64,000 nt of DNA from Malacoraja senta (taxonomy: Eukaryota). Under the pieces are notes generated by a model. It ran no database searches, had not been told where the DNA came from, and saw only the letters and a list, made by a program, of their open reading frames with translations. The position numbers were made by a program, and so were the translations under genes. Below are positions 8,286 through 61,129 of this stretch, one piece after another; the stretch's first letter is position 1, and every line of letters begins with the position of its first letter. The stretch covers positions 25,980,001 through 26,044,000 of the forward strand of contig CM075987.1 in assembly GCA_038087875.1 (NCBI GenBank), read 5' to 3'.

Positions 8286-9523
8286 TGGCTGGTTTCCTTC
8301 CTATTGTGAATCCTTCGTGGAGGTTGAGCCGCCGGCGTCTGGGTTTGTGGTTGGGTTGGCGTTGGGGGTTTGCGCATCTTCCACGAAGGCTGGTCTGGGC
8401 CATGGCCTAAAAAAGACCCATGTGCAGTGTACCTGGCCTTTGAGCTTTCACCAGTTTGTCTTGTTCTACTGGTGGGTGCATAAGGGTGCTGTTTATGACC
8501 ATAGTAGGGTTTTGATGATGTCGCTTTGATGAGCCCCAGGGTTTTTGCCTCCTCATCGAGCTCTTTGACTTGCTTGGTTGGATAGGTTACCTCCAAATAG
8601 TAAAATTGGTGGTTTTATATTTCCAGGTTTGCACAGACCTGCAAATTTCGGGTTTAAAGCAGGTCGAATGGCACTCTTCCTGATGCTGTTTATTTCGTAT
8701 TGTGTATTACAGAGCAGTGCCAGTGCATCCTGTTGATACTGCGACATCTCCTTTTCATCTACTGTCCGGGCGAAAGCTGTTATTCCCGTTGTTAGGAGCT
8801 TTAGTACTTTTTGGAGTTTGACATCCCATGCCTCTAACTCCTGCTCCGACGTGTTTCCATATGCAATTATTTACAATGGGAACATTCAGGGATGTACAGT
8901 TCCCAGGTGGCAAATGTCTTGCCGTGGTGTCCAATACAGCCTGTTCCTGTAGCTGCTTAAATTACATATAGTCAATACTGGCAGCTAGTTTCGGTTCCAG
9001 GTTTCGGCCAGTTTGGTCTGGCTGTATGAATTGGGACACCATGTCCAGTAGATTGTGGTCTTCCTGCACCCCTCGCACACTTGATGTTTGTTCTGGAAAC
9101 CCCTCTTCAGGGTCAACCCAGAATTGACCCCCAGTACTCCCCTCTGACGAGGGAGATGCACTGTGCAGACCTACAAGAGGTGCTGCTGTGGGTGTATTAA
9201 ATTGCCCACAGTGACTAGACTCCATCTCCCGGAGCCTGTCACGTTGCAGCATTTGCTCCATAAGCCGCTCCATCCGGCTCCAGCGTTCACGGCCGCTGGC
9301 CGCTCGCGGCTGCTCAAAGTCGGACTCATCCGAGTCAACGACTCTATTAGACTTTTGTATTGCCTTACCGCCCGGCCGCGGTGTAGATCTGGCCGAAGTC
9401 GGGCACAGCTGTTCCCATTACGGGTGATTCACGTGCCGCTGGCCGCTGCTGGCTGCCCGTAACTCCGCGGTCCTCCCTCGCCAGCTTTGGAGCAGCCTTC
9501 TTGGTTTTCCTTGTTTTGTCCAT
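8279..9523 (-). pseudogene. DIRS ORF1 (gag-like), frameshifted
   Basis: ATG at 9523; fragments 8962-9273, 8553-8747 (DALALLCNTQYEINSIRKSAIRPALNPKF..LLFG) and 8279-8596; overlaps the RT start as in DIRS1. Confidence 0.75.
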
Positions 9524-16000: not shown

Positions 16001-16124
16001 GTCTTAATCCAAATGCCTAATCAAAATCACAATCAGGTTGTTGCCAAAATGTGAATCTTAGAATTTTCCCCAAAACGTTTGTTAATTGTACTTCTAAATG
16101 TCTCAAAAGAGACAGGAATTCTTT

Positions 16125-16615
16125 TCCAGGTGAGGCAGAGGTTCACCTGCACCTCCTCCAACCTCATCTATTGCATCCGCTGCTCTAGGTGTCAGCTGCT
16201 CTACATCAGTGAGACCAAGCGCAGGCTCGGCGATCGCTTCGCCCAACACCTCCGCACAGTTCGCATTAACCAACCTGATCTCCCAATGGCTCAGCACTTC
16301 AACTCCCCCTCCCATTCCGAATCCGATCTTTCTGTCTTGGGGCTCCTCCATGGCCAGAGTGAGTCCCACCGCAAATTGGAGGAGCAGCACCTCATATTTT
16401 ACACCCCAGCGGTATGAACATTGACTTCTCCAATTTCAGGTAGTCTTTGCTTTCTCCCTCCTTCCCCTCCCCTTCCCAGCTCTCCCACAGCCCACTGTCT
16501 CCGCCTCTTCCTTTCTTCTTCCCGCCGCCCCCACATCAGTCTGAAGAAGGGTCTCGACCCGGAACGTCACCTATTCCTTCGCTCCATAGATGTTCCTCCA
16601 GCATTTTTGTCTACT
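16125..16615 (+). mobile_element. Penelope-like element 3' end: GIY-YIG endonuclease fragment, UTR and hammerhead-like core
   Basis: QVRQRFTCTSSNLIYCIRCSRCQLLYISETKRRLGDRFAQH (GIY-YIG with CxxC); CTGAAGAAGGGTCTCGACCCGGAACGTC at 16541. Confidence 0.88.
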
Positions 16616-17136
16616 TCGGAATTCTTCAAATGTTGATTTAAAATACAGTATCCACCTGAACACCATTTTCACGCATCTATGTCAAAGACAGTTGGCACAA
16701 AAGCCATTATACTCTGTTGTCCATTGCTGTATAGAACTGAAGACATTGTCACCTTGTGGGGGGGGGCAACAATCTTAAATTGTCGAAGTGGCCATATTCA
16801 TGACATTTGTCACTGTTGCCGTGACAAAGGATGGCTGTGACAAAAGCAAAAGAAGTCATTAGAAATTGTGCGTGCTCATTGGAAAAGTAGATTCAATGAT
16901 GTGACCTTGTTTCTGGACAGAATCTTGCACCAAATAGTCCTTCCCACTCAGCTGGATGACAAAGAACAGAGTCCAAAAATACTTTTTCTTATTGAGTAAA
17001 GAGATTCAATGGACATGTTTTTAAAGGGATCAGGAGCGCAGCCCTTATGAGTCAATTCTACATCAATAACTGTTCCAGTATTAGGGTGCTCCTAGCAATG
17101 ACACTCACATGATACAGATTTGCAAAGCAGCTCACT

Positions 17137-20720: not shown

Positions 20721-22422
20721 ACCTAGAAGCTCATCACACTATTCTAAACGAACATTACCATATCACCATCTGCTTTGATCTGCCATTTTCACACCTTACT
20801 CTTTTATATCTCTTGACTCCCTCTCCCCTGACTCTGTCTGAAGAAGGGTCTCGAGCTGAAACGTCACCCATTCCTTCCACCCAGAGATGCTGCCTGTCCC
20901 GCTGAGTTACTCCAACATTTTGTGCCTATCTTGATCCTCCCAATCTTCCCCCTCCTTCTATTCTGCTGCCTTCACTCCACGATTTTCACGCATTGTGTGG
21001 GTAAAAAATCATCAGCTGCCAAGAAAGACACGAGTTTCTTAATTGCTACTGCATTCTATCTCCACAAACCCATAAAATAATGACACATTGCTGAGGGATA
21101 GCCGTAGGAATTGAAATCTAATCAAGTAGCGCTCAAGGTGCCAAGCTATAAAATGGTGATATTCAACAAGACATGTTCTTGCAGTATGCATTCACTCTCG
21201 TCATTACTTTGGGAAGGGCAAAGAAAATATTGCCTGATGCAGTTTGTATAACAAATGGAGGAATTGGTAGTAGGAAAGTTTGGGAAGTGACACAGTAATA
21301 ATAAAACTCACAATTTATTTTTCAAAATTGTCATTCACCATATTGGCGTGCCTCATATGCAGTTTATATCTGCAATGTGAAAAGACGATTTTAACACAAC
21401 ATGCTCTCTCTGCTGCCCAGCCATTCCTCGAATAATGCGATGTCTTCAGGGAAAATATTTTGTTGAGTGAGGCTTCGTAAATCATGACAAAAACATAATG
21501 TGAGTATTTTAATATGGACTCGGGGGGGGGGGGGGGGGGGCTCATGTTGTCCACCTCCCCGTGGTGAGCCCTGTCAACTGGCCTCAGTCAGGCGAACGCC
21601 AACAAACATAGACAGCTTGGCGCCGCAGCTTGGCGCCAACCCGGAGTACGCGCCCCTTTTTAGGGCGGCCCCAGGAATTAAAATGTACAAATACAAATGG
21701 TCAGGTTCTGAGTATGGTACACCTCCAATTAGCTATTTTCCTCATTTCCATTTGAAAATACATCTTTCACCACAATAAAGCATTTTTTTCCCTCTGCAAT
21801 AAAGAGGCTTTTATTCCATTAATGGTGTTTTTAAAGTTGATGAACGCTTATTCTGACTTTAATCAATCCTCCTCGCACGATTCCTGTCATTGTAAATGCT
21901 GCCATTAATATCGCCGCGCAGAAAATGAGAAAGGATATTTGCAACGCAATATGCTGGGGAGACTTGTGATAAATGCAGCTGGTTATAAAGTCAACTCAGT
22001 AATCAAAGCGTTTTGAATAACGTCAGCAAAGGCCCCGTAAATAAGGCTTACATAGCTCCATTATGTTTGACAGTTACAAAATTCATGTTTCTCAAGTTGC
22101 AAATTCTACCATTTCATATCCAGTTATGTTGTCCAACCTTCCTTTATTCCCATTCATCCACAGAGTCATAAGAATGATACAGCATGGAAACAGGCCCTTC
22201 GGCCCAACTTGCCCAAACCGGCCAACATGTCCCAGCTACACCCATCCCACCTGCCTGCGTTTGGTCCATATCCCACCAAACCTGTCCTCTCCATGTACCT
22301 GTCCATTTTGATCCATCTAGCTATATTGCTTTCAAAATAAACCTCTCAATGTACCGAAACTTTAAAATACCAATGCGAACAGATGCAATTGTGAATCAAA
22401 CAGGTCAAAGTTTACGTGCTAA

Positions 22423-25519: not shown

Positions 25520-28290
25520 TTTTTTTTTTCTTTTTTTCTCCCTTTTTCTCCCTTTTTTTTTTTTTTTTTTTTTAATAATATTTTTATTGGAGGCAAATAC
25601 ATATATTGAAATCATGACATATATTTCATTTCTACATTACTAATATTATCCAACATTATTCGTGTTGTCTCCAATAGTTTAAAAAATATATATAGATAGA
25701 AAATAAGAGAGTAGGAGAAAGAAAGATAAGAATAAAAAGACAAAGAAAAAAAAAGAAAAAAAAGGAAAGAGATAATAAAGAAGAATGGAATAACTTACTA
25801 AAAATACATCATTAGAGATATATTCGTACATTTCAAAGTGTAACTTTTCATCTAATCCTTGGCTCGAGTTTTAGTCAGGTTCTCGTGTTGCACCAGTCTG
25901 ACCCTTCAAATAATCAATAAATGGAGACCATGTTCTGATAAATAATTCTTGTTTGTCCAATAGGACAAATCTAATTCTTTCCAAATGTAAGGTCTCCGAC
26001 ATTTCTATAATCCACATTTTAATTGTGGGGGTTATAGGACCTTTCCAAAATTTTAGTATTAATTTTTTTCCAGTTATTATACAATAATCAATAAAGTTTC
26101 TTTGAGTTGTTGTCAATGTTTGATTTTGTTCTAATATTCCTAGTATTATTAATTTTGAATCAGGATCCAATTGAGTGTTGACAACTATAGATATTATTCT
26201 ATAAAATATTTGCCCAGAATTTTTAAATTTTTATACAATTCGCAAATGTATGAGTTAAATAATTTAACTCATACATTTGCGAATTGTATAAAAATTAAAA
26301 AATTCTGGGCAAATATTTTTTAATATTTAATTAATAAAATCTAAATGTTGACATTTATCACAAATAGGGGAGATATGTGGGAAGATTCTATTTAGTTTTG
26401 TTTTAGAATAATGTAATCTATATAGTACTTTGAATTGTATTAGAGAGTGTCTGGCATTTAATGAACATTGATGTATGTGTTGTAAACTTTCTTCCCAAGT
26501 ATCTTTCGTTATTGTTTGATTTAGTTCCTTTTCCCATGTTTGCCTATAAAAGTCCGTCGATTGAATCTCACTTTCTAATAAGATATATATGTGAGATATT
26601 AATTTTTCTGTATTAGGATGTTTATTCAAACAGTCATCAAGGATTTCTGAATCTCTAGTTCTAAAGTTTTGAGTATTTGCTTTAACATAATCTCTAAGTT
26701 GTAGATATCTGAAAAGATCATTTAAATGGAGTCCATAAGTCTGTTGTAGCTCCTGAAATGAAAGAAATGTGCCTTCCTTATAAAGTTGTCCCATCATTTT
26801 AATTCCATAATTTTTCCATTGTATGAAACCTTTATCCAACCAAGAAGGTTTAAATAAAGGGTTATTCACAATGGGACGAAAAAGTGATAAATTATCCAAT
26901 TTTAATGTCTTTTTTAATTGTTTCCAAATTCGCATACCACTGTATATTATAGGATTTTCCCTATACATTTTTTTGTTCAATTTCGAAGTAGCAAATAGTA
27001 TCGAGCCAATTTCAAAGGGTAAACAATCTTCCTTTTCCATTTTTAACCAATCCGGTTGTTGATCTATTTCTTCCAACCAAAAATTCATATTTTTAATGTT
27101 TACTGCCCAAAAATAAAACAAAAAATTTGGTAAAACTAAACCTCCATTTATTTTTGATTTGCACAAATGTTTTTTGCTTATCCTATGATTCTTATAATCC
27201 CAGATAAAATCAGTGATAATGGAATCCAACTTTTTGAAAAAGTTTTTTGGCAAGTATATCGGAATTGTTTGAAAAAGGTATAATATTTGCGGTAAAGAAA
27301 TCATTTTATGGCATTAATTTTACCAACCATTGAAATAGGAAGTGTTTGAATGTTCTTATGTAGTTTATTCAGTAAAGGGGGAAAATTTTATTTAAATAAT
27401 GATGCATATGTTTTAGTGACATAAATTCCTAGATATTTAAATTTTTCATTTACTGTTTTAAACGGGAATTGTTGTAGTATATGTGTATTATGTTCCCTTA
27501 TTGGCATAATTTCACTTTTATTCCAATTGATTCTGTATCCAGAGAGTAAACCAAATTGAGTTATTAAATTTAATAAATTTGGAATACTAATTTCTGGTTT
27601 TGTGATGTAAATTAATACATCATCTGCGTATAGAGAAATTTTATTCACTGTGTCTTTAGTGTTATACCCGTATATTTCCGAGTGGGTCCTAACTCTTTCA
27701 GCAAGTGGCTCAATAGCAAGCGCAAATAATAACGGAGATAATGGGCATCCTTGTCTATAACCTCTAGATAAATTAAATTTAGATGATAACCTTTGATTTG
27801 TTAATATTCTAGCTGTTGGGTTAGTATATAAAAGTTTTACCCATGTACAGAATTTCTTGCCCAATTGCAATTTTTCCATCACCGAAAATAAATAGGGCCA
27901 TTCAACCTGATCAAATGCTTTCTCAGCATCAAGTGAGATTATTGCTAGGTCTTCGTTAGTGATTCTCTTTGAATATATTATATTAAATAATCGTCTCAAA
28001 TTAAACTATGAATACCGTTTCTGAATATAGCCTGTTTGGTCAGGGTGTATTAATTTATTCATCACTGTACTTAATCTGTGTGCTAGAATTTTAGTTAATA
28101 TTTTCTGATCTGTATTTAAAAGCGCAATTGCTCTGTATGATCCTGCATCTTCGAGATCCTTATCAACCTTTGGTATAAGTGTTATTATAGATTCGTTTAA
28201 GGAATCTGGCAATTTCTGTTGAATATAAGTATACTCATACAGTGTTTGTAAACGTGGGGAGACCAAATCGTAAATTTTTAAATAAAATTC
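25520..28290 (-). mobile_element. 5'-truncated L1-clade LINE (ORF2 RT to C-terminus, 3' UTR, poly-A), inserted in a CR1 tail
   Basis: ITLIPK..SYRAIALLNTDQKIL..IHPDQTG, ISLDAEKAFDQVEW, RQGCPLSPLLF, SLYADD, CDKC zinc knuckle; poly-T on + strand at 25520-25572; several frameshifts. Confidence 0.95.
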
Positions 28291-28465
28291 AGAACCTGAA
28301 CCTATTCAAGAGAGAGTTAGATATAGCTCTTGGGGCTAACGGAATCAAGGGATATAGGGAGAAAGGAGGAACAGGTTACTAATTCTGGATGATCATCCAT
28401 GATCATAGTGAATGGTTCAAAAGGCCGAATGGCCAACTCCTTCACCCATTTTCTATGTTTCTATG

Positions 28466-28617
28466 ATAGACACAAAATGCTGGAGGAACTCAGCGGGACT
28501 GGCAGCATCTCTGGAGAGAAATAATGGGCGACGTTTCGGCTCGAGACCTTTCTTCAGACTTCTTCACTCCGAAGAAGGGTCTTGACCCAAAAGGTCACCC
28601 ATTCTTTCTCTCCAGAT
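28466..28617. mobile_element. Penelope-derived fold-back element
   Basis: ..CTTCTTCAGACT and CCGAAGAAGGGTCTTGACCC.. inverted halves. Confidence 0.75.
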
Positions 28618-30490: not shown

Positions 30491-31427
30491 AATAGACATT
30501 GTTGTTCCGACATCAAAGACAGCCATTTAATTAGATTGATTCCATCTCCCATTTTAAGGTTAAAACAGGCCACTGATTTGAACGTTTTTTGGAATAAACT
30601 ACTGCTTGTGTTAATGAAAAATCAGGAAAAACCTTGCAAATCAAATGAATAATTTCAGTTAGCAAGACAGATGTTATGAATAATGAAGTTGAGGATATTT
30701 CATATCCTGATACATGGGCTTCAAAGTGAATCGAGCTAAATGTTACAGAAATTCATTTTGAACATAATTAATACAAAGGGAGGCTCCATTTCTCACTCAC
30801 TGTTGCAAAAATTAATTGTGGCCAATCTGCTGTGGAAGCTGTTCTCTTGGCAGGAAGTACATTGTACATCTCTTCATCAGTTCCCATCGCAGGAGTCAAA
30901 GCCCATGGATGAATGATTCTCAAAAGTTGACAAATTAATAACATTACTGTGTCATTACTTGACACCCATTCAAATTGGCGACCATGATGTGGTCGGAACG
31001 AATTACCACACAGCTTAAGCAGCCAAAAACGCAGAGGCTTATTTGCAAGATGCCAAATGACATTGCCTCATCTCAGGGATTCCTTGCGTAGGAAGGAACT
31101 GCAGATGCAGGTTTTGAACTGAAGACACACACACCCAAAAAGCTGGAGTAACTCAGCTGGGCGGGCAGAGAAGGAATGGGTGACGTTTCGGATCGAGACC
31201 GTTCTTCCCCCGTTCCTTCTCTCCAGGGATGCTGCCTGTCCCGCTGAGTTACTCCAGCTTTTTCTGTCCATCTCAGAGATTCCATATTCCCTTTTTCCCT
31301 TCATTATTCCCTCGTCATGTATCTGTACCACTGTAAATGGTAATAATTAATTGTCCTTCTGCTGGCTGGGTAGCACGCAACAAAAGCTTTGTACCTTGGT
31401 ACACGTGACAATAAACTAGAGTAACTA

Positions 31428-31598
31428 GGGTACACAAAAATGCTGGAGAAACTCAGCGGTTGCAGCAGCATCTATGGAGTGAAGGAGATAGGCAAACATT
31501 GCCTATTTCCTTCGCTCCATAGATGCTGCTGCACCCGCTGAGTTTCTCCAGCATTTTTGTGTACCTTCGATTTTCCAGCATCTGCAGTTCCTTCTTAA
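31428..31598 (+). mobile_element. Short Penelope-derived fold-back element
   Basis: About 70-bp inverted arms; perfect 15-bp TSD AAACTAGAGTAACTA. Confidence 0.85.
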
Positions 31599-31921
31599 AA
31601 ACTAGAGTAACTAATTAAGTAACATGTTGAGACCTGACTTCAGACTGAATATCAGCAAAGCAGTCTGCGACAATGTCTGTTATATCGTTAGACTTCAGAG
31701 ATACAGCGCGGAAACAGGCCCTTTGGCTCACCGAGTCCGCGCCAACCAACGATCCCTGTACACCAACACTGTCCTGCACACTAGTTTAGTTTAGATTAGA
31801 GATACACTGCCCTTCGAACCAGCGAGCCCGTGCCAACCAGCGATCCTCAGACACTAACACTATCCTACACACACTAGGGAAAATTTTACAAATATACCAA
31901 GCCAATTAACCTACAAACCTG

Positions 31922-32221
31922 AAGGTACACAAAAATGCTGGAGAAACTCAGCGGGTGCAGCAGCATCTATGGAGCGAAGGAAATAGGCAACGTTTCGGGC
32001 CGAAACCCTTCTTCAAATTGGCGACCATGATGTGGTCGGAATGAATTACCACACAGCTTAAGCAGCCAAAAACGCAGAGGCTTATTTGCAAGATGCCGAA
32101 CAACGTTTTAGCCCAAAACGTTGCCTATTCCTTCGCTCCATAGATGCTGCTGCACCCGCTGAGTTTCTCCAGCATTTTTGTGTACCTTCGATTTTCCAGC
32201 ATCTGCAGTTCCTTCTTTAAC
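31922..32221 (+). mobile_element. Penelope-derived fold-back element inside an HE1 SINE, carrying a captured local sequence
   Basis: 14-bp TSD AACCTACAAACCTG; centre 32012-32097 duplicates 30969-31054. Confidence 0.85.
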
Positions 32222-32364
32222 AACCTACAAACCTGTATGTCTTTGGAGTGTGGGAGGAAACCGGAGCACCTGGGGAAAACCCACGCAGGTTACGGGGAGA
32301 ACGTACAAAGTCCGTACAGACAGCACCCATAGTCGGGATTAAACCCGAGTCTCTGGTGCTGTGA

Positions 32365-36717: not shown

Positions 36718-37000
36718 GATTAGTCTGCACCCCAGCGGCATAAACATGACTTCTCCAATTTCCGGTAGCCTTTGCTGTCTCCTCTCCTCCCCTTCTCACC
36801 TCAACCCTCGGCCCTCTGGCTCCTCCTCTTCCTTTCTCCTTTCTTCTCCCCCCCCCCCCCACCCTACATCAGTCTGAAGAAGGGTTTCAGCCCAAAACGT
36901 TGCCTATTTCCTTCGCTCCACAGATGCTGCTGCACCCGCTGAGTTTCTCCAGTACTTTTGTCTACCTTCGATTTCCCAGCATCGGTAGTTCCTTGTTAAG
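36718..37000 (+). mobile_element. Penelope 3' fragment with hammerhead-like core inside an HE1 SINE (36573-37190)
   Basis: ORF end, UTR, CTGAAGAAGGGTTTCAGCCCAAAACGTT; 14-bp TSD CAACTAACCTGCAA. Confidence 0.82.
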
Positions 37001-37699
37001 CAACTAACCTGCAAACCTGCACGTCTTTGGAGTGTGGGAGGAAACCGAAGATCTCGGAAAAAATCCACGCAGGTGACAGGGAGAACGTGCAAACTCCGTA
37101 CAGACAGCACCCGTAGTCGGGATTGAACCCGGGTCTCTGGCGTTGCGAGCGCTGTACGGCAGCAAATCTACCGCTGCACCACCGTGCCGCCCTCGAATGG
37201 GCCAAGGCTGAGGACTGCACCAACACGTTTCAGATTTCGCTCCTCAGATAATGATCCCTTCATGTATTCTTCATGCAGTGCTGCAGGAGGTGGTGGTGGG
37301 CGATATTAAAATGAATCACGTTGTTTTGCCCAAGTCTGTATAATGATGAACAGAGCTTCAAGCATTTACACCCAAGAGCATATGGACTTGACAGGATGTA
37401 CACGTGCCATATTTACTCTGACATTATTTACTGTGCTGCCTGCAAGAATGTTCGTTAGTGATGGAATATATATTGTTGATCCTGGATTGAGTGGATGTGG
37501 AGAGGATGTTTCCACTGGTGGGAGAGTCTTGGACTGGAGGTCACAGCCTCAGAACTGAAGGACGTTCCTTTGGAAAGGAGATGAGGAGGAATTTCTTCGT
37601 CAGAGGGTGGTGAATCTGTGGAATTCATTCAAACTTTATCTTGAACAATTGGAATATTTTCGACAGTTTCTGATTTGTTTTCATATATATTCTGCAGTT

Positions 37700-38280: not shown

Positions 38281-39911
38281 TGTTTTTAATTATCTGATGC
38301 TTTGAGAGCTTTGTTAGCATTTAGCAGGTAGTTTTATCCCGAATGTGTTTTACGATTTTCTTTAAATATTGCAATGTTTGGTTCAGAGATACAACGTGGA
38401 AACAGGCCCTTTTGGTTGGGATTGAACTTCTTGCCCTTCCCATTTCATATGTTGCCACAGCGACGACATTTCACAAAAGTTGCCCTTCAGAAACAAGCCT
38501 TTCTTCACAGTTCGGCGACGTACTTTTGAAACTACTTTTCTCATGAAGGTTGCTGTTCAAAAGAATAATATTCCTGGAGTTACAAGATTGATCCAACCAG
38601 GATGTCATGAGGTGACACTGTGAACAGTTGATATTAACATAGCTTTGATGTTAAAATGCAATATATTCATTCATTCATAATACAGAAGCAGATTAACAGC
38701 ATAATTTTGTTTTAAAAATGGACACATTTGTCATCCAATATTAGGCATAAAGAACACCATTTCCACATTTGGTTCTGAGAGTTTTTTTCTTCAGGATCAT
38801 AGCGATGATGATGCTCAAATCGTTTTCATTTATTATATATGATATGACATCTTTATTAAAATAACAGAGAGAGAATTTGAATGGCATTGTATGAATTTTA
38901 GTTGCTGTTACCATAAAGTACATTTACAACACATTTATATCTAACCACCTTGACGTTGTTGACTATAACTCAGGCCCCATAATGTTGTTCGTTATGATTA
39001 TATGCGCACTGAAAGATGTTCCTCAAAATAATGTTGTTTAGTTCACATTAGTTTATCGTCACGTGTGGCGAGATACAATGAAAAGCTTTTGTTGCGAGCC
39101 AAGCAGTCAGCGGAAAGACAATACATGATTACGATCGAGCCATTTGCAGTGTATAGATGATACATGATAAGGGAATAACATTTAGTGCCAGGTAAAGCCA
39201 GCAAAGTCCGATCAAAGATAGTCCAAGGGTCAGCGATGAGGTAGATAGTAGATCAGCACTGCTCTCTGGTTGTTGGTAGGATGGTTCAGTTGCCCCATAA
39301 CAGCTGGGAAGAAACTGTCCCTTGAATCTGGAGGTGTGCGTTTTCACACTTCTGTACCTTTTGCCCGATGGGAGAGGGGAGAAGAGGGAGTGGCCAGGGT
39401 GCGACTCGTCCTTGACTACGCTGCTGGCCTTGCCGAGGCAGCGCGAGGTGTTGATGGAGTCAATGGAAGGGAACAGAAGATAGACACAAAATGCTGGAGT
39501 AACTCAGCGGGACAGGCAGCATCTCTGGAGAGAAGGAATGGGTGACGTTTCGGGTCGAGCCCCATCTTCAGACCTTAAAGTGAATACTTTTGTGTCTTAC
39601 AGAAATGTCATAAAACTTCTTTCCAATTGAACCTTCCACAAACGATGCCTCTGCTTTCTCAGATGGAATAAAAGTGTTCCCAAAGAAGAACAGGGGAGTT
39701 TCAGCTAATAGACTTTGCTCAAACAGATTGAACTTGAAATTGGATCCATTAGTGCGTGCTTTCCATGTGCAACTTACACATAACAGCAATTTTACTCAGT
39801 TTACAGGACGATCAATCATTTCCGAATGAAATAGTGCCCATCTGTACACGTCTTTGGTGAATTTGTGCATCTGATGTTTTTATATTATCAGCCATGCACC
39901 TAATGGCTAAC

Positions 39912-40682: not shown

Positions 40683-41374
40683 CAAAGTCCTGAATAGCAT
40701 TGCTCAAATGGAATTCCAACTTTTGTTAATTTTCTCTCAGAAATAATTTGACGTGATTTTGCATCACCACGTCCTTGGCACCTTTTCGTCTCTCTAAGAT
40801 GCGTGATCCTGAGGAGTTGTGCGGGAAGGAACTGCGGAGGCTGGTTTAAGCCGAAGATAGACACAAAAAAGCTGGAGTAACTCAGCGGGGCAGGCTGCAT
40901 CTCTGGGGAGAAGGAATGGGTGACGTTCCGGGTCGGGAGAACCTTTGAGGAAACGTTTCGAGGACTCGGTGGGACAAGATGCATTTGCGGAATTAATGGT
41001 CAGTCCAAACTTTGGGGTGTCGCAGTTCATCGTCACTCATTCTGTCTGTGCCAGGAGCAGAAAGCACCAGTCAAAAGAGCTGAGCAGGCAGATTCATTAA
41101 ATTGGAAAGCAGCATGAATCCTCAGCACATTAGCTCAGAGTAATGCTTCCCTAATAGGATTTGTTGAGGTGTAAGTAAGAGTGGCATTTGTGGATTTCTT
41201 TTGCACGATGAGCTGGGAGAAAATGAGCTGCAAGTTTAAGCAAACCCCCTCTCATCAAACCGTACAGGTTAGTGTGTGGTTTGGAGTTGCCGCAGTTGAC
41301 TTGCAATCCTTTTGAGTCAAACCGCAGATGGACTTGGTTTGGAGACTGTGAAGGTCAGATTTCCACTTGGCACT

Positions 41375-41762
41375 CTGCGATCGTTTCGCTGATCACCGCC
41401 GCTCAGTCCGCCTGGACCTACCTGATCTCCCGGTTGTCAAACACTTCAACTCCCCCTCCCATTCCCACACCGACCTTTCTGTCCTGGGCCTCCTCCATTG
41501 TCAGAGTGAGGCCCAGCGCAAATTGGAGGAAAAGCACCTCATATTTCGCTTGGGCAAATTACACCCCAGCGGTATGGATATTGATGTCTCTAACTTCAAG
41601 TAACCCTGGCATCCCCTCTTTCTCCATCCCCTCCCGCACCCTAGTTCTCCGACTAGTGTCACTGTCTGTCTGATTAATTTTACTGACTGTACGCCTCATT
41701 GTCATCTTCTCTTCAGCTAACAATGCACCATTCTACATTTCCTTATCATCGTCGGCTTTGAT
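41375..41762 (+). mobile_element. Penelope-like element 3' fragment
   Basis: DRFADHRRSVRLDLPDLPVVKHFNSPSHSHTDLSVLGLLHCQSEAQRKLEEKHLIFRLGKLHPSGMDID. Confidence 0.85.
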
Positions 41763-47112: not shown

Positions 47113-47359
47113 TAAGCTGCCCGTACTGTCTAGTTCTTCCCGCGTTTCATTTAGCAACCCAAGGACTGCCGGAGTGCAACAGAGTGGACATTTCTGCTTG
47201 TGAAATAACCTTTTTCTTTGGAAAAAAAAGTTAAAAGTTAAAAGGCTGATAATTTGCCTCCAGAATAATGGCGTGTTAATACTGCAGCTCATGCACAAAT
47301 GTTACAAGAAACGGCAGGGAAGGAAGGCTGGCGAGGGAGATTAAACAGATGCACCAAAT

Positions 47360-47562
47360 GTAGACACAAAATACTGCAGTAACACGGCAGGACAGGCAGC
47401 ATCTCTGGAGAGAAGGAATGGGTGATGTTTTGGGTCGAGACCCTTCCTTTGACTCAACGTCGCCCATTCCTTTTCTCCAGAGATGCTGCCTGTCCCGCCG
47501 TGTTACTCCAGCATTTTGTGTCCATCTTCGGTGTAAACCAGCATCTGCAGTTCCTTCCTACC
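47360..47562 (+). mobile_element. Penelope-derived fold-back element
   Basis: Inverted arms ending CAGCATCTGCAGTTCCTTCCTAC. Confidence 0.78.
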
Positions 47563-47603
47563 CAAAAGATGTTCTCTGTTGTGTACTAAGTATTGTCATG
47601 AGG

Positions 47604-49514: not shown

Positions 49515-50994
49515 CATGTTATGCTTCTCATAGGTAAGAATCAACCAAATTGCAACTCCTTTGATATATTCAGTTCTCAAATATTACCACACACAGTAAT
49601 TAGTTGGAAAGCCATTTTCTCTCCATTGATTGCATTATTGACAAAATGAATTATGTGCATTAACCTTAAATTAGTTTAGACTTTTAACAACTCAGGTCCT
49701 TGTTGGTACCCAGAGGAGCAATCCATTCATCCTTTCCCCCCTTGCCTTATTTGCCTGCGTAGTTGTGGTTCATTCTCTCGTAAAAAAAAGCTCATCAACT
49801 CTCCTTTGATTTCTTATCCTATTACTTTGCAAGATTGGACAATTTAAATGGCCAATTAATCCGCTGACACATCTTTGGGATGATGGGGAGGGGTGGGGGG
49901 GGGGGAGGGGGGGGGGATGCTGAAGCTGTAATGCAAAAACCATTCTGACGAAAGTTTCTAGAGCCACCGAACATCAACTCAGTTTCTCTCCCACTAATGC
50001 TGCTTGACCCTAATGCAGCGAATTGTGGACGCAGCCCCGAACATCACGCAAACCAACCTCCCTTCCATTGTCTCCATCTACACCTCACGCTGCCTCGGCA
50101 AGGCCAGCAGCGTAATCAAGGACGAGTCGCACCCCGGCCACTCCCTCTTCTCCCCTCTCCCATCGGGCAAAAGGTATAGAAGTGTGAAAACGCACACCTC
50201 CACATTGAGCGACAATTTCTTCCCAGCTGTTATCAGGTATTGGGACCATCCTACCACAACCCGAGAGCAGACCTGCACCACTATCTATCTCATTGGAGAC
50301 CCTCGGACTATCATTGATCGGACTTTACTGGCTTTACCTTGCACTAAACGTTATTGAAGTTATTCCCTTTATCATGTATCTGTGGATGGGTCGATTGTAA
50401 TCGCGTATGGTCTTTCTGCTGACTGGATAGCGCGCAACAAAAGCTGTTCACTGTACCTCGGTGCAAGTGACAATAAAATAAACAAAACAAAATGAGATAT
50501 TCTTATCAAAGAAAGGCCTATCTTCAATCAACCATTCATTCTTATGCAAAACTTCAATAGGTTGCCCAGCCAATATCTCTCCATTGTAAAAGCTCATAGA
50601 ATTTATATAGTATGGAGTGAGAATTGATGAGCCATTATTTAGCAGAGTGAATCAATGATTCATATCCCCACCACTCTTCCACTTAGCTACTGTGCTTGAT
50701 TCACTGGGTCCAATGTTAATGGAAGGAGGCTGTTGGACATTTTTTTTAATGTCGGAAGGAATTGCAGATGCTGGTTTAAACCGAGGATAGACACAAAATG
50801 CTGGAGCCTGACACTCAGTCTGAAGAAAGGTGTCGACCTGAAACGCCGCACGTTCCTTCTCTCCAGAGTTGCTGCCTGTCCCGCTGAGTTACCTAATCCA
50901 GCTTTTTGTGTCTGCCTTCGGACCTTTTTTTGTTATTGCTTGATGTAATGCGCGCTGATTTCCCATGCCCCTTCGAGAGGGAGCTGGATTTTGT

Positions 50995-51420
50995 TTGGCG
51001 ATCGCTTCGCCCAACACCTCCGCTCAGTTCGCAATAACCAACCTGATCTCCCGGTGGCTCAGCACTTCAACTCCCCCTCCCATTCCGAATCCGACCTTTC
51101 TGTCCCGGGCCTCCTCCATTGCCAGTGTGAGGCCCAGTGCAAATTGGAGGAACAGCACCTCTTATTTCGCTTGGGTAGTTTATACCCCAGCGGTATGAAA
51201 ATTGACTTCTCCAATTTCAGGTAGTCCTTGCTTTCTCCCTCCTTCCCCTCCCCTTCCCAGCTCTCCCACAGCCTACTGTCTCTTCCTTTCCTTTCCCTGC
51301 CCCACCACCCCCCAACATCAGTCTGAAAAAGGGTCTCGACTCGAAACGTCACCTATTCCTTCGCTCCATAGATGCTGCCTCACCTGCTGAGTTTCTCCAG
51401 CACTTTTGTCTACCTTGGAT
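50995..51420 (+). mobile_element. Penelope-like 3' end with degenerate hammerhead-like core
   Basis: GDRFAQHLRSVRNNQPDLPVAQHFNS..; CTGAAAAAGGGTCTCGACTCGAAACGTC. Confidence 0.85.
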
Positions 51421-52238: not shown

Positions 52239-53224
52239 TAACAGCGTGGAAACAGGCCCTTTGGCCCAACGCCCACATGACCAACCTACACTAGTCCCGC
52301 CTATCTGCGTTTGGCCGATATCCCTCTAAACCTGTCCTATACATAATTCTTTTACGTTATTCCCTTCGTCCTGTATCTGTACAGTGTAGATGGCTTGATT
52401 GTAATCATGTATACTCTCCCCGCTGACTGGATAGCACAAAATAAGTACAAGGACACCAATCCTTTCCTATCTTGGGCCATTAAATATGTACCCAGTGTTA
52501 GTTGCCATCATATTAAACTGTGGTCATGCATCATTGTTACATTTTATAGCTTGTCATAACATCCTTTTAATGGACAGATCAAATATATAACACGATGAAA
52601 TAGCTTATATCTTTTTTGAAACTGCATCAAATCAAGATCACAATGGTAAATGCTGGGAGACCATTTGGCCCATCGCCTCCTGCAGACCTTTGAAAGGCCA
52701 CTGAAATAGTCACACATGGATCAGACATAGGTTTAAGATGAAGGGGAAAAGATTTAATAGGAACCTGAGGGGTAACATTTTCACATAAAGGGTGGTGGGT
52801 GTACGGAACGAGCTGCCAGAGGGGGTAAGAATATGTGTAAGAAGGAACTACAGATGCTGGGTTAAATCGAAGGATGGACAGACAAAGCTTGCGTAACTCA
52901 GCGGGACGGGCAGCGTCTCTGGAGCGAAGGAATGGGTGACGTTTCGGGTCGAGAGCCTTCTTCAGATAGACTGTTGGTGTAGTGGGAAGTACATCGATAA
53001 GGAAGTGTATAGATCAGGAGTGTAAGGTGTGAAAACAGGACCAAGGGAATGGAAAATGTAGAATAGATTATCGTTAGTGATCAGAGAACTAGGGTGGGGG
53101 AGGGATGGAGAGAGAGGGAAGTCAATATTCATACCGCTGCATTGTAAATTGCCCAAGCGAAATATGAGGTGCTGTTCCTCCAATTTGTGGTGGTTCTGAC
53201 CTTGGGAAGGTTGGAATGCAGCTG

Positions 53225-54977
53225 TAGACAATAGGTGCAAGAGTAGGCCATTCGGCCCTTCGAGCCAGCACTGCCATTCAATGTGATCATGGCTGATCAT
53301 CCCCAATCAGTACCCCGTTCCTGCCTTCTCCCCATATCCCCTGACTCCGCTATCTTTACGAGCTCTATCTAACTCTTCCTTGAAAGCATCCAGAGAACCA
53401 GCCTCCACTGACCTCTGAGGCAGAGAATTCCACAGAATCACAACTCTCTATGCGAAAAAGTTTTCCTCATCTCCGTTCTAAATGGCTTACCTCTTATTCT
53501 TAAACTGTGGCCCCTGTTTCTGGACTCCCCCAACATTGGGAATCTATTTCCTGCCTCTAGTGTGTCCAAACTCTTAATAATCTTATATGTTTCAATAAGA
53601 TCCCCACTCATCCTTCAAAATTCCAGAGTATACAAGCCCAGCCGCTCCAATCTATCAACATGTGACAGTCCCGCCATCCCGGGAATTAACCTCGTGAACC
53701 TACGCTGCACTCCCTCAATAGCAAGAATGTCCTTCCTCAAGTTTGGAGACCAAAACTGTGCACAATACTCCAGGTGTGTTCTCACTAGGGCCTTGTAGTG
53801 CCAGAAACTACAAGCCAGAAACTTAGGAGTAGATGCATTGAGCAAATCAACGATTGGATGAACCAGAATTTTCTCCAATTAAGCAAAGAAAAAACTGAAA
53901 TAATTGTTTTTGGAGCCAAGGAAGAACGATTAAAAGTTAGCACCCAGCTTCAAATGGTAATGCTAAAAACAACAAACCAAGCCAGAAACTTAGGAGTAGT
54001 CATGGACTCAGACCTGAACTTCAACAGCCACATAAAAACAGTCACAAAGTCAGCCTACTATCACCTGAGAAATATATCAAGGATTAAGGGACTTATGTCT
54101 CAGTAGGATTAGGAAAAACTTGTCCATGCATTTATCTTCAGCAGGCTCGACTACTGTAACAGTGTCTTTGCAGGTCTCCCTAAAAAGTCGATCAGACAGC
54201 TGCAGTTAATTCAGAACGCTGCTGCTCGAGTCCTCACTAAGACCAAAAAAGTAGATCACATTACTCCAGTTCTGAGGTCTTTACACTGGCTTCCTGTCTG
54301 TCAAAGAATTGATTTCAAAATACACTGGTTTACAAAGCACTGAATGGTTTAGGGCCAAAATACATTTCTGATCTTCTGCTTAGCTACGAACCACCCAGAC
54401 CTCTCAGATCGTCTGGGACAGGTCTGCTCTGTGTCCCCAGAGTCAGAACTAAACATGGAGAGGCAGCATTTAGTTTTTATGCACCACATATCTGGAACAA
54501 ACTCCCAGAAAACTGCAGGTCTGCTGCAACTCTCAGCTCTTGTAAATCTAGACTGAAGACTTTTCTGTTTGCCACTGCCTTTCAGTAAACAATACAATTT
54601 ATTAATTACCTATATTAAAAGCAATCAAATAAAATATTTAAAATAGAATAAAACCAGGAATAGAAGTTACAGTGCAGTAACTTCTATTCCTGGTTTTATT
54701 CTATTTTAAATATTTTATTTGATTGCTTTTAATTTTGTAATTATTATCTGAATAATCTAATAATCATTTTATATCTAAATGTCATTTTTATATGCTTTAA
54801 ATGTTTTATGTAAAGCACTTTGAATTACCTTGTGGTTAAAAGGTGCTATACAAATAAACTTGCCTTGCCTTGCCTTGTACAGCTGCAGTAGAACCTCTTT
54901 GCTCCTATACTCAACTCCTCGTGTTATGAAGGCCAACATGACATTCGCTTTCTTCACTGCCTGCTGTACCTGCATGC
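53225..54977 (-). mobile_element. CR1/HER1 fragment split by an L2 insertion
   Basis: ..LLQLYKA|LVRTHLEYCAQFWSP.. is continuous across 53798-54870. Confidence 0.88.
53798..54875 (+). mobile_element. L2-clade LINE 3' fragment
   Basis: [67 protein letters not shown]; tail AGGTGCTATACAAATAAA(CTTGC)n; GCCTTGTA on both flanks. Confidence 0.92.
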
Positions 54978-55591
54978 CTGTGTAAGAAAAACATTGTTGG
55001 GCTAAAGTTAAAGGAGATTCAATCTGCTGCTGTTGAAGGTGTTCATCGACCTAAGCAGTAACATTCCTCGCTTCCGATGGTATCTAAAATATGAATGGGG
55101 GGTTGACCTCCACTGGCAAGCAATTGCATATTCCCACAACAATGTATTTTATCACGGCTTGGCTTCACAACAGACAACACACTTTTAAGAAGCAAAGTGT
55201 TGCAATGAATCAAATGTCAGAACCTAGCCACACTTTCATTTTTGAAATCAAGGCTTTCACATAGATTTGATAATATGATTGGAAAAGCCTACAGACACAT
55301 GCGTGGAAAGCGTGCAGAGATTTATTTAACACAATTAATGTATTTCATAATCTTATCTGCAGAGAAGCAAAAGCTAATTACCAACTTCCCACCAAACCAT
55401 TAATCCAAAATGGGTTTAAAATGATCCGATCTAATCTATAATCACAGAACAAAGTTTTATTGAAAAGCGAAGTAATTTGGTGAACGTAAAACATTTCCAA
55501 CAGGACACTTTGTACCTTCAATAAATATATTCATAAAAAGTTTAATATTTTTGGAACAAAGATCATTTTCTCATTTTCTCATTTTCTCATT

Positions 55592-55725
55592 TTCTGAAGA
55601 AGGGTTTCGGCCCGAAACGTTGCCTATTTCCTTCGCTCCATAGATGCTGCTGCACCCGCTGAGTTTCTCCAGCATTTTTGTGTACCTTCGATTTTCCAGC
55701 ATCTGCAGTTCCTTCTTTAACACGT
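55592..55725 (+). mobile_element. Minimal Penelope-derived unit beginning at an intact hammerhead-like core
   Basis: CTGAAGAAGGGTTTCGGCCCGAAACGTT at 55594; CATTTTCTCA on both flanks. Confidence 0.78.
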
Positions 55726-55747
55726 CATTTTCTCAATGTTGGTAGCT

Positions 55748-56750: not shown

Positions 56751-57554
56751 TTCTACCTGCAAATTGACAGTTGTGCAAAGATAGCTCTGACAATGTGATC
56801 GAAGTATTATTGCAAAGTGCCTTCGATAGATGTGAGGATCGCACACATTTCAGCCTGTCTTGCAGTTGTCTGAGTCTTGAAAGGAAATAAAACTGGTAAA
56901 CAGTTCATCATATCAAAAGGAATCATAGTAAGAAATTCCTTTGCCTCTGTATTTCATTCAGATGAGGCAAGCCTTTATTCCCTTCTGTACAGTGCTGATA
57001 AGGAATAACAAAGGCTTCACGCAGAGCTTTATATCACTGTTATACCTTTAATGTTGCAGTTAAGGAAGGCTGCCATTTCTTAGGATCTAAAGATTTGAAA
57101 GCAGGGCAATGGGTCGAAGATAATGCAACGAAAACAGCAGATTTTATGAATATTTGTTTTCGGGGCATTTTATTGAAGATTGCAAACCAGTTTAACCTGT
57201 GACTGAAGATAGGCACAAAATGCTGGAGAAACTCAGCGGGGCAGGTAGCATCTTTTGGAGAGAAGGAATGGGTGACGTTTCAGCTCGGAGACCCTTCTTC
57301 AGACTGGGACTTTGGGGATTTCAGTGCCAACTGCCTACTATTTCTGTTTAGAAAATATATTTGTTTGATAATATACCAGAAATTGCAAAAGGCATCTAAA
57401 AAAAGCCAGTACGAATACAACTGGCAAGTGAGATGAATATTGAAAGCCCCTTAAATCAGAGTCGAGGTTACAATTAATGTAGATGTGTTTCATGTTCATG
57501 CACCATGTTAGGCACTGACATCGTGTGCCAAAGGCACCATGTGTGTAATGATCT

Positions 57555-58915
57555 GTGTAGGAAGGAACTGCAGATGCTGATGTAAACCGAAGATAGACAC
57601 AAAAAGCTGGAGTAACTCAGCGGGTCAGGCAGCATCTCTGGAGAAAAGGAATGGGTGACGTTTTGGGTCGAGACCATTAGTCAGAATGAGTGTCATGGGG
57701 AAAGGGAACGAGAGATATAGACGGTGACGTAGATAGATACAGAACAAATGAATGAAAGAAATGCACAAATGTTACGATGATAAAGGAAACAGGCCATTGT
57801 TAGCTGCGGCCTAGGTTAGAACGAGTTACAGACAATGAGACTCAACAAGACGACTTTGAAGCTGGTACACCTTGGATGGGGGAGGGATGCAGAGAGAGGG
57901 GATGCAAGGATTACTTGAAGTTAAAGAAATCAATATTCATACCTCTGGGTTGTAAGAGATTAGAGATTCCTTTATTTGTCATTCAGACCTTTCGTTGCCT
58001 GCAGTCATACATATAATAAATAACAAAACACACAATAAACACAAATTAACATCCACCACAGTGAGTTCACCAGGCACCTCCTCACTGTGATGGAGGCAAA
58101 AGTCTTAAAGTCTCTGTCTCTTCCCTCTTTGTTCTCCCTCTGCGCTGAGGCGATCCAGGCTTCTGATGTGGTGACCCTGCCGGGTGATGGTAAGTCAATC
58201 CCGCGGCTGAATCCGTGCTCCGTGACGGGCCGGTTCAAATTCCGCGGCCCGGGGTGGCCGAAGCTGCCGAAGCTGCCGCCCTCCAGTCCAGCGGACGCAG
58301 CTGTAGTTGCGGGAGCCCCAGAAAAACAGGTCACCCACCTGTGACCTGCGAGCTCCCGACGATGTCGTCCACCGGGCCCGCGGCCGAGCCTCCGGATTCA
58401 GGTTGCCACCAGTGTCCTCGGTCGCCACCGCCGGAACGCCACCGCAGCCCCGAAGTTGGCCAGCCCCGCGCTGGTAAGTCCTGGCTCTGCCTCCGGAGCC
58501 TCGAGGTCGGTCGGTCGCAGTTGGAGTTGGAGGCCGGCAGCTCCGCCATTAGGCCTCGGCGCAGACGGAGGCAGAGAAGGGGGATACGACAAGAAAAAGT
58601 CGCATTCCCCCGACGGAAGAGACAAAAATCATGTTTCACCCCCCCCACCCCACACATACACAACCCAATAAACTAAAATTTAACTAAAATAGGACAAAAG
58701 AAAACAACAAAAAAAGTAAAAACAGACGGACTGCAGGTGAGCCGCTGCTGTTCAACAGCGCCGCCACTTCCGAATTAAGGTGCCTAAGCTAAATATGAGA
58801 TGCTGTTCCTCCAATTTGCGTTTGGCCCCACTCTGACAATGGAGGAGGCCCAGAACAGACAGTTCAGTGTGGGAATGGGAAGGGGAATTAAAGTGTTTGG
58901 CAACCGGGAGATCAG
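57555..58915 (-). mobile_element. Penelope-like 3' end split by an insertion at about 57955-58780
   Basis: UTR and arm at 57555-57955; ORF part ..KLEEQHLIFSLG at 58780-58915. Confidence 0.75.
57955..58773 (-). mobile_element. GC-rich non-autonomous retroposon with Rex1-like tail
   Basis: Head CGGAAGTGGCGGCG, T-rich tract, G-run, GC-rich body, CCATCACAGTG..CTGTGGTGGATG hairpin, tail GAATGACAAATAAAGGAATCTCTAATCTC. Confidence 0.65.
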
Positions 58916-60330
58916 AATAGTGTTCTCTGGTTGCAGTAGGATGGTTCAGTTGCCTGATAACAGCTGAGAAGAAACTGTCCCTGAATCTGGAGGTGTGCGT
59001 TTTCAAACTAGTATGCCTTCTGCCTGATGGGAGAGGGGAGAAGAGGGAGTGACCAGGGTGCGACATGTCCTTGATTACGCTGCTGGCCTTGCCGAGGTAG
59101 CGTGAGCAATAAATGGAGTCAATGGAAGGGAGGTTGATTTGTGTGATGGTTTGGGCTGCTTCCCCAATTCGGCCTTGGATGGAGCTGTTCCCAACCGGGT
59201 GATTACTGGTTGGCACGAACTTGGTGGGGCCGATGAGCCTGTCCCTACGCTGCTACTCTAAACTATTGAGAGTTTCGAGTGTTTGAGTTTTTGAGAGTTA
59301 TAAAGGGGAGCAGAATTAAGCCACTTAGCCCATGAAGTCTACTCCGCCATTCAATCATGGCTGATAAATCAGCTATTCATGAATGGCGGAATAGACTTGA
59401 TGGGCTGAATGGCTTAATTCTGCTCCTATAACTGATAAACCTATGAACTAAATTAAAATGAAAATACTTTGCTTCGCTGTCCTCTCTGCTCTTTGTATAA
59501 GGTTCACCAGCTCAGATAGACCCCTTCTCTATTTTAAAATTTTAAATTAGTAGCAGAATTAGGCCATCAGGTCTACTCCGCCATTCAAGCATGGCTGATC
59601 TATCTCTCCCTCCTAACCCCATTCTCCTGCCTGCTCCCCATAACCCCTGACACCCGAACTAAAATCAAGAATCTATCCATCTCCGCCTTAAAAATATCCA
59701 CTGCCTTGGCCTCCACCGCCTTCTGTGGCAAAGAATTCCACAGATTCACCAGCCTCCGAATTTCTGAACTTGCCAGCATTGCGACCTCAGAAGAAACTCC
59801 ACAACGGATTATTCTGATCCTCCGGACACTGCAGGAGTATGAATTGGTGCTGGAGATATACGGAGCCTGTTGCCATGAGCGATAACCATCACCATTAATC
59901 TTCCTTGTTCTGCCACAGATACTCTCCACACCTCCTGGGTTGCTTTTATTAAACTTTGTATGTCTTCCAGGCAATTCCATTTTAATTTCCAGTTTCTTTA
60001 TGCTCGCAAAGGGTTATTTCTGAGCATTTCTTGTCGGTTCTCTGGGCTATCTCCTATCAAGCTTTTCCATCAAACGATTTCAAGAGAGTTACTGTAGATT
60101 CAGCACTTCGGGCTCACGGGATCAATGGATATGGGGAAAAAGCAGGAACGGGGTACTGATTTTGGATGATCAGCCATGATCATATTGAATGTGTTGGTGC
60201 TTGCTCCAAGGGCCGAATGGCCTAATCTTGCACCTATTTTCTATGTTTCTATTATACCCATGGCTATGTACAACAGATTGGTCTTTATTCTAAAGATAAA
60301 TGCTTTCATCCTTCTCTCCCACACACAACA

Positions 60331-60750
60331 TCTATATATTACTAAAAACCTCATCTTGTTTGTTTGGATGTCTGTCTGTAAGTGAGTGAGTGAGATCCTG
60401 AAATTACGCCAAAACGGCACACGATAGTGCTACAATTTTTGCTCCACCTTACTCACAATTGTCCTGTGGTGTGTTTTCAACAAGTTTCGTTCAGATTGAT
60501 GTTATATTTTACAAGTTATCTCATTTTTTAGGTTTACAAAACCCCACTTTGAGAAAGATTTATTTCTAATCTGCACTGGCAGTTACCAGCTATGATGTCA
60601 CAATGGGATTGTAGCCCTGCCCACTACAATGGTGCTATCCCAGTACACCGAGTCCTTTAGCAAGTGCAATTGCATTTTTTTTAAAGTTTACTATGAGGGA
60701 GGGTGAATAAGGGGAAATGAGCCAGCCTGCACACTTGGGGGCTAAAAGTT
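60331..60750 (+). mobile_element. Probable non-autonomous Helitron 5' part
   Basis: A|TCTATATATTACTAAAA start followed by (GTTT/GTCT/GAGT)n microsatellite; no clear 3' hairpin-CTAG seen. Confidence 0.45.
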
Positions 60751-60837
60751 ATAGAAATCAATATTCATACCGCTGGGTGTAGAAGACCAGTTGTCTTCTG
60801 ACTGACTCTAACGCTGCAAAACTATCTGTAGATTCAT

Positions 60838-61045
60838 GGAGTCACAGAGTCACAGATACACAGAGATACAGAGTCACAGAGTCACAGTCACAGAATCACA
60901 GAGATACAGAGTCACAGAGACACAGAGACACAGAGACACAGAGAGGCAGAGACACGGAGACACAGAGACACAGAGAGACAGAGTTGCAGTGACATAGTCA
61001 CAGAGTCACCCAGACACAGAGTCACAGAGTCATAGATTCATAGAG
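60838..61045 (+). repeat. Imperfect 8-bp tandem repeat (GTCACAGA/GACACAGA)n
   Basis: About 25 units, grading into the CATAGAGT CR1-type tail. Confidence 0.9.
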
Positions 61046-61129
61046 TGTTACAGCGTGAAAACAGAGTGATTAACTTCACTATCTGATAACTTTCAGTTGG
61101 GTGTGTTTTTTTGTGCTTTTCTTTGACTC

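Follow-up and report, generated by a model that had tools for sequence, protein, structure and literature searches.

Dispersed hammerhead-bearing repeats in a skate-like genome as probable truncated 3' ends of Neptune-like Penelope elements

Minimal hammerhead motifs are known from fish Neptune, Poseidon and Xena elements, where most of them occur singly and are described as "probably related to truncated PLEs" (PMC4209133). The hallmarks given in the same source are an extra base between positions 9 and 10.1, a G10.1-C11.1 pair and a palindromic stem III, and such hammerheads are reported to cleave weakly as dimers (PMC4209133, review PMC6765202). Penelope insertions typically show heavy 5' truncation, an inverted upstream copy and a 30-40 bp tail, often at one end only (PMC8557442, PMC3846280), and a CX2-5CxxC linker between the reverse transcriptase (RT) and the endonuclease marks the Neptune/Nematis type (PMC8557442). 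Reverse transcription of the anole element can start at two internal sites, and the sequence between them makes up the tail; the hammerhead of that element cleaves only with the element's protein, is dispensable for insertion and leaves no RNA-seq ends at the cut site (PMC11167929). For cartilaginous fishes, our literature searches found no report of Penelope hammerheads in sharks or skates, with a prior mention in Lunse et al. 2016 or Repbase/Dfam being possible, and no shark or skate was found in two supplement files of PMC4209133; a study of tandem retrozymes sampled one chondrichthyan (bioRxiv 2026.07.22.740005).

We analysed a 64-kb stretch of DNA from a skate-like genome (the window), in which a preliminary description had noticed dispersed short repeats sharing one arm. 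The full anatomy of these repeats comprises a GIY-YIG gene end, a pyrimidine-rich spacer, a hammerhead core, an arm of ~100 nt and an optional tail of ~35 nt. With a probability of roughly 0.8, we interpret them as 3' ends (pLTRs) that were dead on arrival and derive from no fewer than three related Neptune-like Penelope families. They carry the minimal hammerhead that was described from pLTRs in 2014, and the extra A belongs to it as well. The preliminary description had explained this extra A by a viroid precedent; the base is indeed present, but the precedent is unnecessary, since an extra base here is a stated hallmark of minimal Penelope hammerheads (PMC4209133). Positions below are numbered from C3 of the core (+1), which places H17 at +28 and the predicted cut between +28 and +29, and feature coordinates are collected in Table 1.

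The arm family and its Penelope origin

Using a profile built from six copies in the window, we found 40 arms (0 in 10 shuffles), which cover 5.8% of the window and uphold the proposal of a dispersed family. Adjacent arms form nine head-to-head and three tail-to-tail pairs, with no head-to-tail pair within 150 bp, and because nine adjacent pairs are head-to-head, the 40 arms correspond to about 31 insertions. Among the 18 arms that span the whole core, only two cores (55594 and 39571) are intact, and the exact motif is present at one place in the window, contrary to the earlier statement that many copies retain it. That statement named nine examples, of which 55594 alone is intact; each of the others (1549, 16541, 20838, 36874, 28530, 31990, 35315 and 52940) is disrupted in stem II, stem III or the core itself.

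Six arms continue upstream into GIY-YIG gene-end DNA, with the hammerhead about 100-230 nt behind the GIY-YIG stop, which is the pLTR position. This arrangement had been noted for 16118-16617 and 50995-51420, and both hold. A pyrimidine-rich spacer of ~100 nt separates core and gene end in these two and in the third family A copy (36722-37001), while the other three gene-linked copies, at 57552-57965, 1176-1492 and 52830-53231, have spacers of other types, 200-230 nt long. The closest proteins to the endonuclease piece come from Leucoraja erinacea (79% identity) and Rhinoraja longicauda (75%), so the host is skate-like. The piece is 52% identical to P0017, a protein with both RT and GIY-YIG; at 16118-16399, a GIY-YIG region with two cysteines between its motifs has a Pfam score below the cut-off. 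The CX2-5CxxC linker is present in the homologues P0001, P0002, P0017 and P0019, and the window fragments stop short of it. Neither a Penelope RT sequence nor a full-length copy is present in the 64-kb window, RT being present in the homologue P0017, so the assignment to a Neptune-like clade comes from the homologues.

The 3' ends of the arms are bimodal, with 21 of 40 at +92 to +108, 16 at +127 to +135 and three elsewhere, and the two end sites, ~35 nt apart, delimit the Penelope "tail". Contigs from public runs, aligned on 36722-37005 with the A1 copy 36722-37001 as reference, also depart from the element at +94 to +96. The 5' ends form a nested truncation series from -420 to +89. In eight of the nine head-to-head pairs exactly one arm is tailed; in the remaining pair, one arm ends early, at +48. 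We also compared the borders of 25 insertions, set by hand, with 400 random controls: nine insertions have duplications of 11-17 matching bases, whereas the largest duplication among the controls is 10, and 16 of the 25 have no clear target duplication. Six of the nine duplicated insertions are inverted pairs, indicating that these pairs are single events, and three gene-linked copies are bounded by target duplications, indicating that they inserted as already truncated units.

Table 1 Coordinates of the repeat features within the 64-kb window
Feature	Position	Strand	Remarks
Minimal type I hammerhead core	55594-55621	+	sequence pattern
CUGANGA box	55594-55600	+	extra A directly after, at 55601
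Stem II	55602-55605/55610-55613	+	UUCG loop
GAAA box	55614-55617	+	then palindromic stem III
H17 = U	55621	+	predicted cleavage directly 3' of this base
Solo pLTR insertion, subfamily A1	55593-55724	+	starts 1 nt 5' of hammerhead core, ends with tail
Optional ~35-nt Penelope "tail"	55690-55724	+	bimodal 3' ends; predicted fold pairs tail with segment near 55640-55648
Left target duplication copy	55563-55595	.	tandemly expanded, 8-bp unit x4.1
Right target duplication copy	55725-55737	.	12/13 bases as in left copy
5'-truncated Penelope copy, A2: GIY-YIG end, ~100-nt pyrimidine-rich spacer	16118-16617	+	hammerhead 16541 (G12 region broken); tail absent; 8-bp duplication
5'-truncated Penelope copy, A2: GIY-YIG end, spacer	50995-51420	+	hammerhead 51323 (G8 changed); tail absent; 12-bp duplication
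5'-truncated copy, A1: gene end, spacer, tail	36722-37001	+	hammerhead 36874 (G12 changed); 16 matching bases duplicated
5'-truncated copy, B: gene end, ~230-nt spacer, tail	57552-57965	-	decayed hammerhead 57684
5'-truncated copy: GIY-YIG end, another spacer type, tail	52830-53231	-	hammerhead 52965 (stem II broken)
5'-truncated copy, B: extends into gene end, no tail	1176-1492	-	hammerhead 1271 (C3 changed)
Solo arm, family B	39472-39573	-	second intact core (stem II 3 bp, H17 = C)
Head-to-head pair, one arm tailed	1513-1678	.	17 matching bases duplicated
Head-to-head pair, one arm tailed	1746-1963	.	11 matching bases duplicated
Head-to-head pair, one arm tailed	4239-4427	.	
Head-to-head pair, second arm shortened	28465-28616	.	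both arms start just 5' of core
Head-to-head pair, one arm tailed	31085-31273	.	14 matching bases duplicated
Head-to-head pair, one arm tailed	31429-31602	.	16 matching bases duplicated
Head-to-head pair, 83-nt captured nearby DNA (30975-31057) between arms	31921-32223	.	15 matching bases duplicated
Head-to-head pair, one arm tailed	47352-47564	.	spurious Rfam microRNA match
Head-to-head pair, one arm tailed	50750-50921	.	11 matching bases duplicated

These signatures support three elements of the preliminary description, namely the Penelope origin, the minimal type I hammerhead with a palindromic stem III and mobilisation by a Penelope RT/endonuclease. By analogy with the anole element studied in vitro, the RT-endonuclease protein would bind the RNA near the tail and nick the target, and reverse transcription would begin internally, at either of two RNA sites separated by about 35 nt. 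It would usually stop early or switch template, leaving solo arms and singly tailed inverted pairs. The hammerhead is carried along as part of the pLTR, and its cleavage does not set the copy ends.

The spacer between the inverted arms at 32015-32098 is a 97.6% copy (83 nt) of 30971-31057, ~1 kb upstream. It has the same orientation as its source, lies within one target duplication and shows a 4-base microhomology at its left joint; it is local DNA captured during Penelope insertion. Three family A insertions (31921-32223, 36722-37001 and 4239-4427) lie in one and the same AC-rich part of a short repeat that is abundant here. The tail, too, ends in AC-rich sequence, a hint of target preference or of microhomology priming. 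These Penelope families are also represented by GIY-YIG pieces to which no arm is attached, at 33-353 (-), 41373-41760 (+), 58776-58988 (-) and 60746-60784 (-). Outside the window, four cartilaginous-fish proteins (P0001, P0002, P0003 and P0006) fuse a Penelope endonuclease piece to unrelated domains (DUF4518, receptor-transporting protein 3-like, RT piece); these fusions are probably gene-model artefacts, or possibly exonisation.

The window also contains a DIRS-type retrotransposon at 5465-9420 (-), with RT pieces at 7086-8300 interrupted by stops, a Dam-like methyltransferase region at 6436-7200 and a tyrosine recombinase ORF at 5465-6442, as well as an L1-like LINE at 25871-28305 (-), whose RT domain is split over several frames. 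An HDV-like ribozyme family of Rfam matches weakly at 21537-21603 (+; 33.4 bits, gathering score 44, E 0.022), and a tandem repeat of an 8-bp unit (26.5 copies) lies at 60839-61046. Strong inverted repeats at 54633-54714, 59283-59455 and 26217-26305 give microRNA-hairpin matches below the gathering threshold; Rfam microRNA matches on the arms were likewise dismissed as inverted repeats scoring below the gathering score.

The hammerhead core and its relatives

On the plus strand, positions 55594-55621 read CTGAAGA-A-GGGT-TTCG-GCCC-GAAA-CG-TT. The hammerhead pattern matches at 55594-55620, with H17 at 55621, and has 0 matches in 100 shuffles, confirming the hammerhead-type core first proposed at 55594. 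CUGANGA, GAAA and NUH boxes occur in type I order here and in the majority of the family. The family also has the additional base between 9 and 10.1, pairs G10.1 with C11.1 and is palindromic at 15.2-16.2. Copy 55594 itself has lost the upstream strand of stem I, with one base pair formed with the flank, and is thus unlikely to fold as a ribozyme.

We searched metagenomes with a pattern of 20 specified bases that leaves out stem I and H17. The same core is present at at least 123 metagenome loci, and none of the 80 flanks fetched matches the window arm model beyond the pattern. Of 126 motifs, 96 have a stem I of at least 3 bp, whereas 2000 shufflings of the partners give 29 on average and 45 at most; after dereplication it is 36 of 61, compared with 9 when shuffled; A-U, U-A, C-G and G-C pairs all occur, which is covariation. 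H17 is not G in 120 of the 126 motifs, and 25 of them are preceded on their own strand by a GIY-YIG end at a distance of 66-168 nt. Judged from these sequence comparisons, the motif is very likely a hammerhead by ancestry. Four metagenome loci (L039, L046, L107 and L118) contain head-to-head hammerhead pairs, and one (L005) has an inverted motif upstream of a Penelope ORF, layouts that are also those of the window.

The window copies differ from most of these relatives in their shorter stem I, which is 2 bp in long copies, with 80% of cells paired and no double change, as weak as had been cautioned. The fourth pair of stem II is U-A or U.G, and in both stems the variation between U-A and U.G is one-sided. 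The preliminary description was thus right that the stem II subfamilies keep their pairing, but the change is not compensatory, and the covariation score of the window copies (0.203) is reached by 113 of 500 shuffles. Folding of six copies gives z values of -1.6 to +1.1 relative to shuffles without a hammerhead as the best fold, and a two-strand fold of the core with its upstream bases yields an extended duplex and no hammerhead dimer.

Conservation of the core across copies had been named as a refutation test, and the core is not more conserved: 13 of 241 core bases are changed (5.4%), compared with 190 of 2696 elsewhere (7.0%, P=0.43). This test does not discriminate, because the copies decay neutrally after insertion and are no gauge of function. 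CpG counts are 23/166 in the hammerhead and 18/146 outside it, and public contigs show similar CpG decay. Between subfamilies A1 and B, 0 of 11 core bases differ, compared with 17 of 102 bases beyond the hammerhead (simple arithmetic gives a P of about 0.13), and this core identity is suggestive only. By analogy with published minimal hammerheads, we give measurable cleavage by the skate form slightly under even odds; the hammerhead of the parent element would probably be a weak ribozyme needing a second copy or the element's protein.

5' ends in front of the core and alternative origins of the copies

The 5' ends of the arms are not evenly spread. Among the 19 arms that include C3, nine start 1-7 nt upstream of it and ten extend 14-420 nt upstream, whereas 0.7 starts are expected in the 7-nt interval from the break rate farther upstream (Poisson P=8e-8, with the interval chosen after the data were seen and the borders read by hand). 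Random truncation alone fails to explain this pile-up. Loose 5' ends at 36871-36873 (-3 to -1), followed outward by unrelated flanks (agreement 0.33-0.47), occur in four of four public runs among the matches listed (24 of 797), of which X19 may be the window's own source; contigs with such ends are 114 and 71 for X19, 150 and 220 for X20, 8 for X4, and 23 and 14 for X2. We found no published description of a sharp 5' boundary before the core in literature searches, and the boundary is absent from the invertebrate families checked.

Bases -5 to -1 read TCAGT in six of ten long copies, are one change away in three and differ in one. TCAGT in front of the core fits an initiator. An initiator-like site, TCACT, has been described in a rotifer pLTR (PMC3846280). 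TCAGT also fits a splice acceptor after a pyrimidine tract, and the Drosophila virilis element has an intron that ends at helix I (PMC4209133) and lies 46 bp after the start site (PMC2377424). Capture of spliced host exons is disfavoured, the 5' flank being a target duplication (55594) or a neighbouring repeat (35343, 20349), and no GT-AG joint ending before the core is present among the matches listed (15 of 28 joints). Since the flanks are target DNA and not captured exons, an RNA 5' end or a strong stop is favoured. A general stop of reverse transcription at the ribozyme structure is disfavoured as well, homology being lost within 10 nt upstream in only 5 of 67 metagenome motifs, a count that may be biased by assembled contigs. 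A transcription start is, at less than even odds, our first candidate for the cause of the pile-up; a strong stop or microhomology bias is about as likely or slightly less so, splicing is unlikely and some other cause unlikelier still.

A fuller version of the transcription-start reading, itself doubtful, is that the pile-up marks the RNA 5' end at TCAGT, the short copies being run-off cDNAs primed at the tail of the 5' pLTR. Stem I would then be limited to 2 bp because the RNA has three bases upstream, and the leader would be clipped. If this holds, cleavage would only clip a capped leader of ~31 nt, acting as a switch of RNA fate and not as a step to circles, and hundreds of genomic junctions would record the start of a vertebrate Penelope RNA. 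On this reading, a rare 45-nt head-to-tail unit with the whole hammerhead may also exist as a mini-retrozyme. The boundary is a cheap handle on where the RNA starts and on whether the cut shapes the template.

That the motif could be a chance look-alike or a protein-binding hairpin of skates, with no ribozyme ancestry, is very improbable. An Rfam scan of the window, the kind of model search proposed at the outset, returned no hammerhead family at E up to 1, and this reading would also accommodate the 2-bp stem I, the lack of covariation and of excess core conservation in the window, and a subfamily core identity that is not significant alone. Against it, the 20 specified bases recur at unrelated loci in the same place relative to the endonuclease, their relatives have a covarying stem I and a non-G cleavage base, and families A and B keep the core though their upstream spacers do not align. 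Comparably improbable is the retrozyme-like cycle of the preliminary description, in which the hammerhead cuts a multimer to monomers that pass through circles to reverse transcription and insertion. The core is of a kind that can cleave as a dimer, by analogy, and tandem retrozymes are reported from one chondrichthyan (bioRxiv 2026.07.22.740005). The 5' ends of three arms lie no more than about 2 nt from the cleavage site, and public contigs contain recurrent joints: one leads from 36961 to 36902, the base that directly follows the cut (X19, depth 381, with a like joint in X20), and others from 36915 to 36871 (depth 993, X19) and from 36914 to 36882 (depths 536 in X19 and 329 in X20). If head-to-tail, these joints could be rare tandem derivatives; they are small beside a summed arm depth of about 10^7. 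The window, however, has no head-to-tail neighbours within 150 bp and no tandem array containing the motif, the ends of the units are not those of a cut-to-cut monomer, the part 5' of the cut is still present at most 5' ends, only 3 of 40 lie near the cleavage site, and in the runs the loose ends with the best support lie away from the cut (among the matches listed, 24 of 797). No RNA runs were among the public runs listed. The copies are nested 5'-truncated Penelope ends and not a separate ribozyme-processed retroposon family.

The sharp 5' boundary itself raises a further alternative, in which the short arms would propagate themselves as a non-autonomous element of SINE-like type, transcribed from a start directly before the core with internal promoter signals and copied by the Penelope protein from short masters. 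The boundary at -7 to -1 in nine of 19 arms and in all four public runs is what such an element would show, as is the initiator-like TCAGT just upstream, exact in six of ten long copies. A change at +89 is common to five short A1 arms and absent from one long A1 copy, and pLTR sequences are described as acting in trans (PMC3846280). We nevertheless regard this alternative as unlikely: gene-linked long copies occur in each subfamily that has short arms, the remaining ten of the 19 arms extend upstream, 3' ends and inversions are common to short and long copies, and the change at +89 is weakly diagnostic, a single long A1 copy having been compared. Truncated Penelope 3' ends remain our preferred reading of short and long copies alike.

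Comparison with described systems

The published motif is hereby extended to a skate-like genome, and the window illustrates that solo Penelope ends can pass for retrozymes or microRNA hairpins. With the metazoan Penelope minimal hammerheads, as described in PMC4209133, the window family shares the boxes, the extra base, the G10.1-C11.1 pair, the loopless palindromic stem III, the pLTR position and the mostly solo occurrence. Stem II has 4 bp and a tetraloop in the window and 7-8 bp in Schistosoma; stem I has 2 bp, as in Drosophila virilis, compared with a typical 4-5 bp; and the cut site is GUU in one window subfamily, unlike the minimal hammerheads set out in that source (PMC4209133).

Neptune/Nematis-type elements (PMC8557442, PMC3846280) have in common with the window a C-terminal GIY-YIG whose motifs enclose two cysteines, strong truncation at the 5' end, an inverted upstream copy, a one-end tail of 30-40 bp, target duplications and unrelated DNA between pLTRs. 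Target duplications are 11-17 bp in the window, compared with 8-10 bp in the rotifer (PMC8557442, PMC3846280), and the linker zinc finger is seen in homologues only, the window having neither RT nor a full-length copy. The Poseidon element PAc of Anolis carolinensis (PMC11167929) shares two internal RT starts that define the tail, an upstream hammerhead and ends that are not at the cut; it belongs to a different clade and its activity was shown in vitro. For the role of pLTR hammerheads, low activity and dispensability for insertion in the anole element are the relevant precedent.

Animal non-LTR retrozymes (PMC7229834; bioRxiv 2026.07.22.740005) resemble the window repeats in being short, non-coding and Penelope-related and in carrying a type I hammerhead. 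As described in these sources, retrozymes are arranged head-to-tail with a hammerhead per unit and form circular RNA, whereas the window repeats are solo or head-to-head and often joined to Penelope gene DNA. The retrozyme hammerhead is canonical, with a 6-bp helix I and a contact between loop 1 and loop 2, whereas that of the window is minimal, with a helix I of 2 bp.
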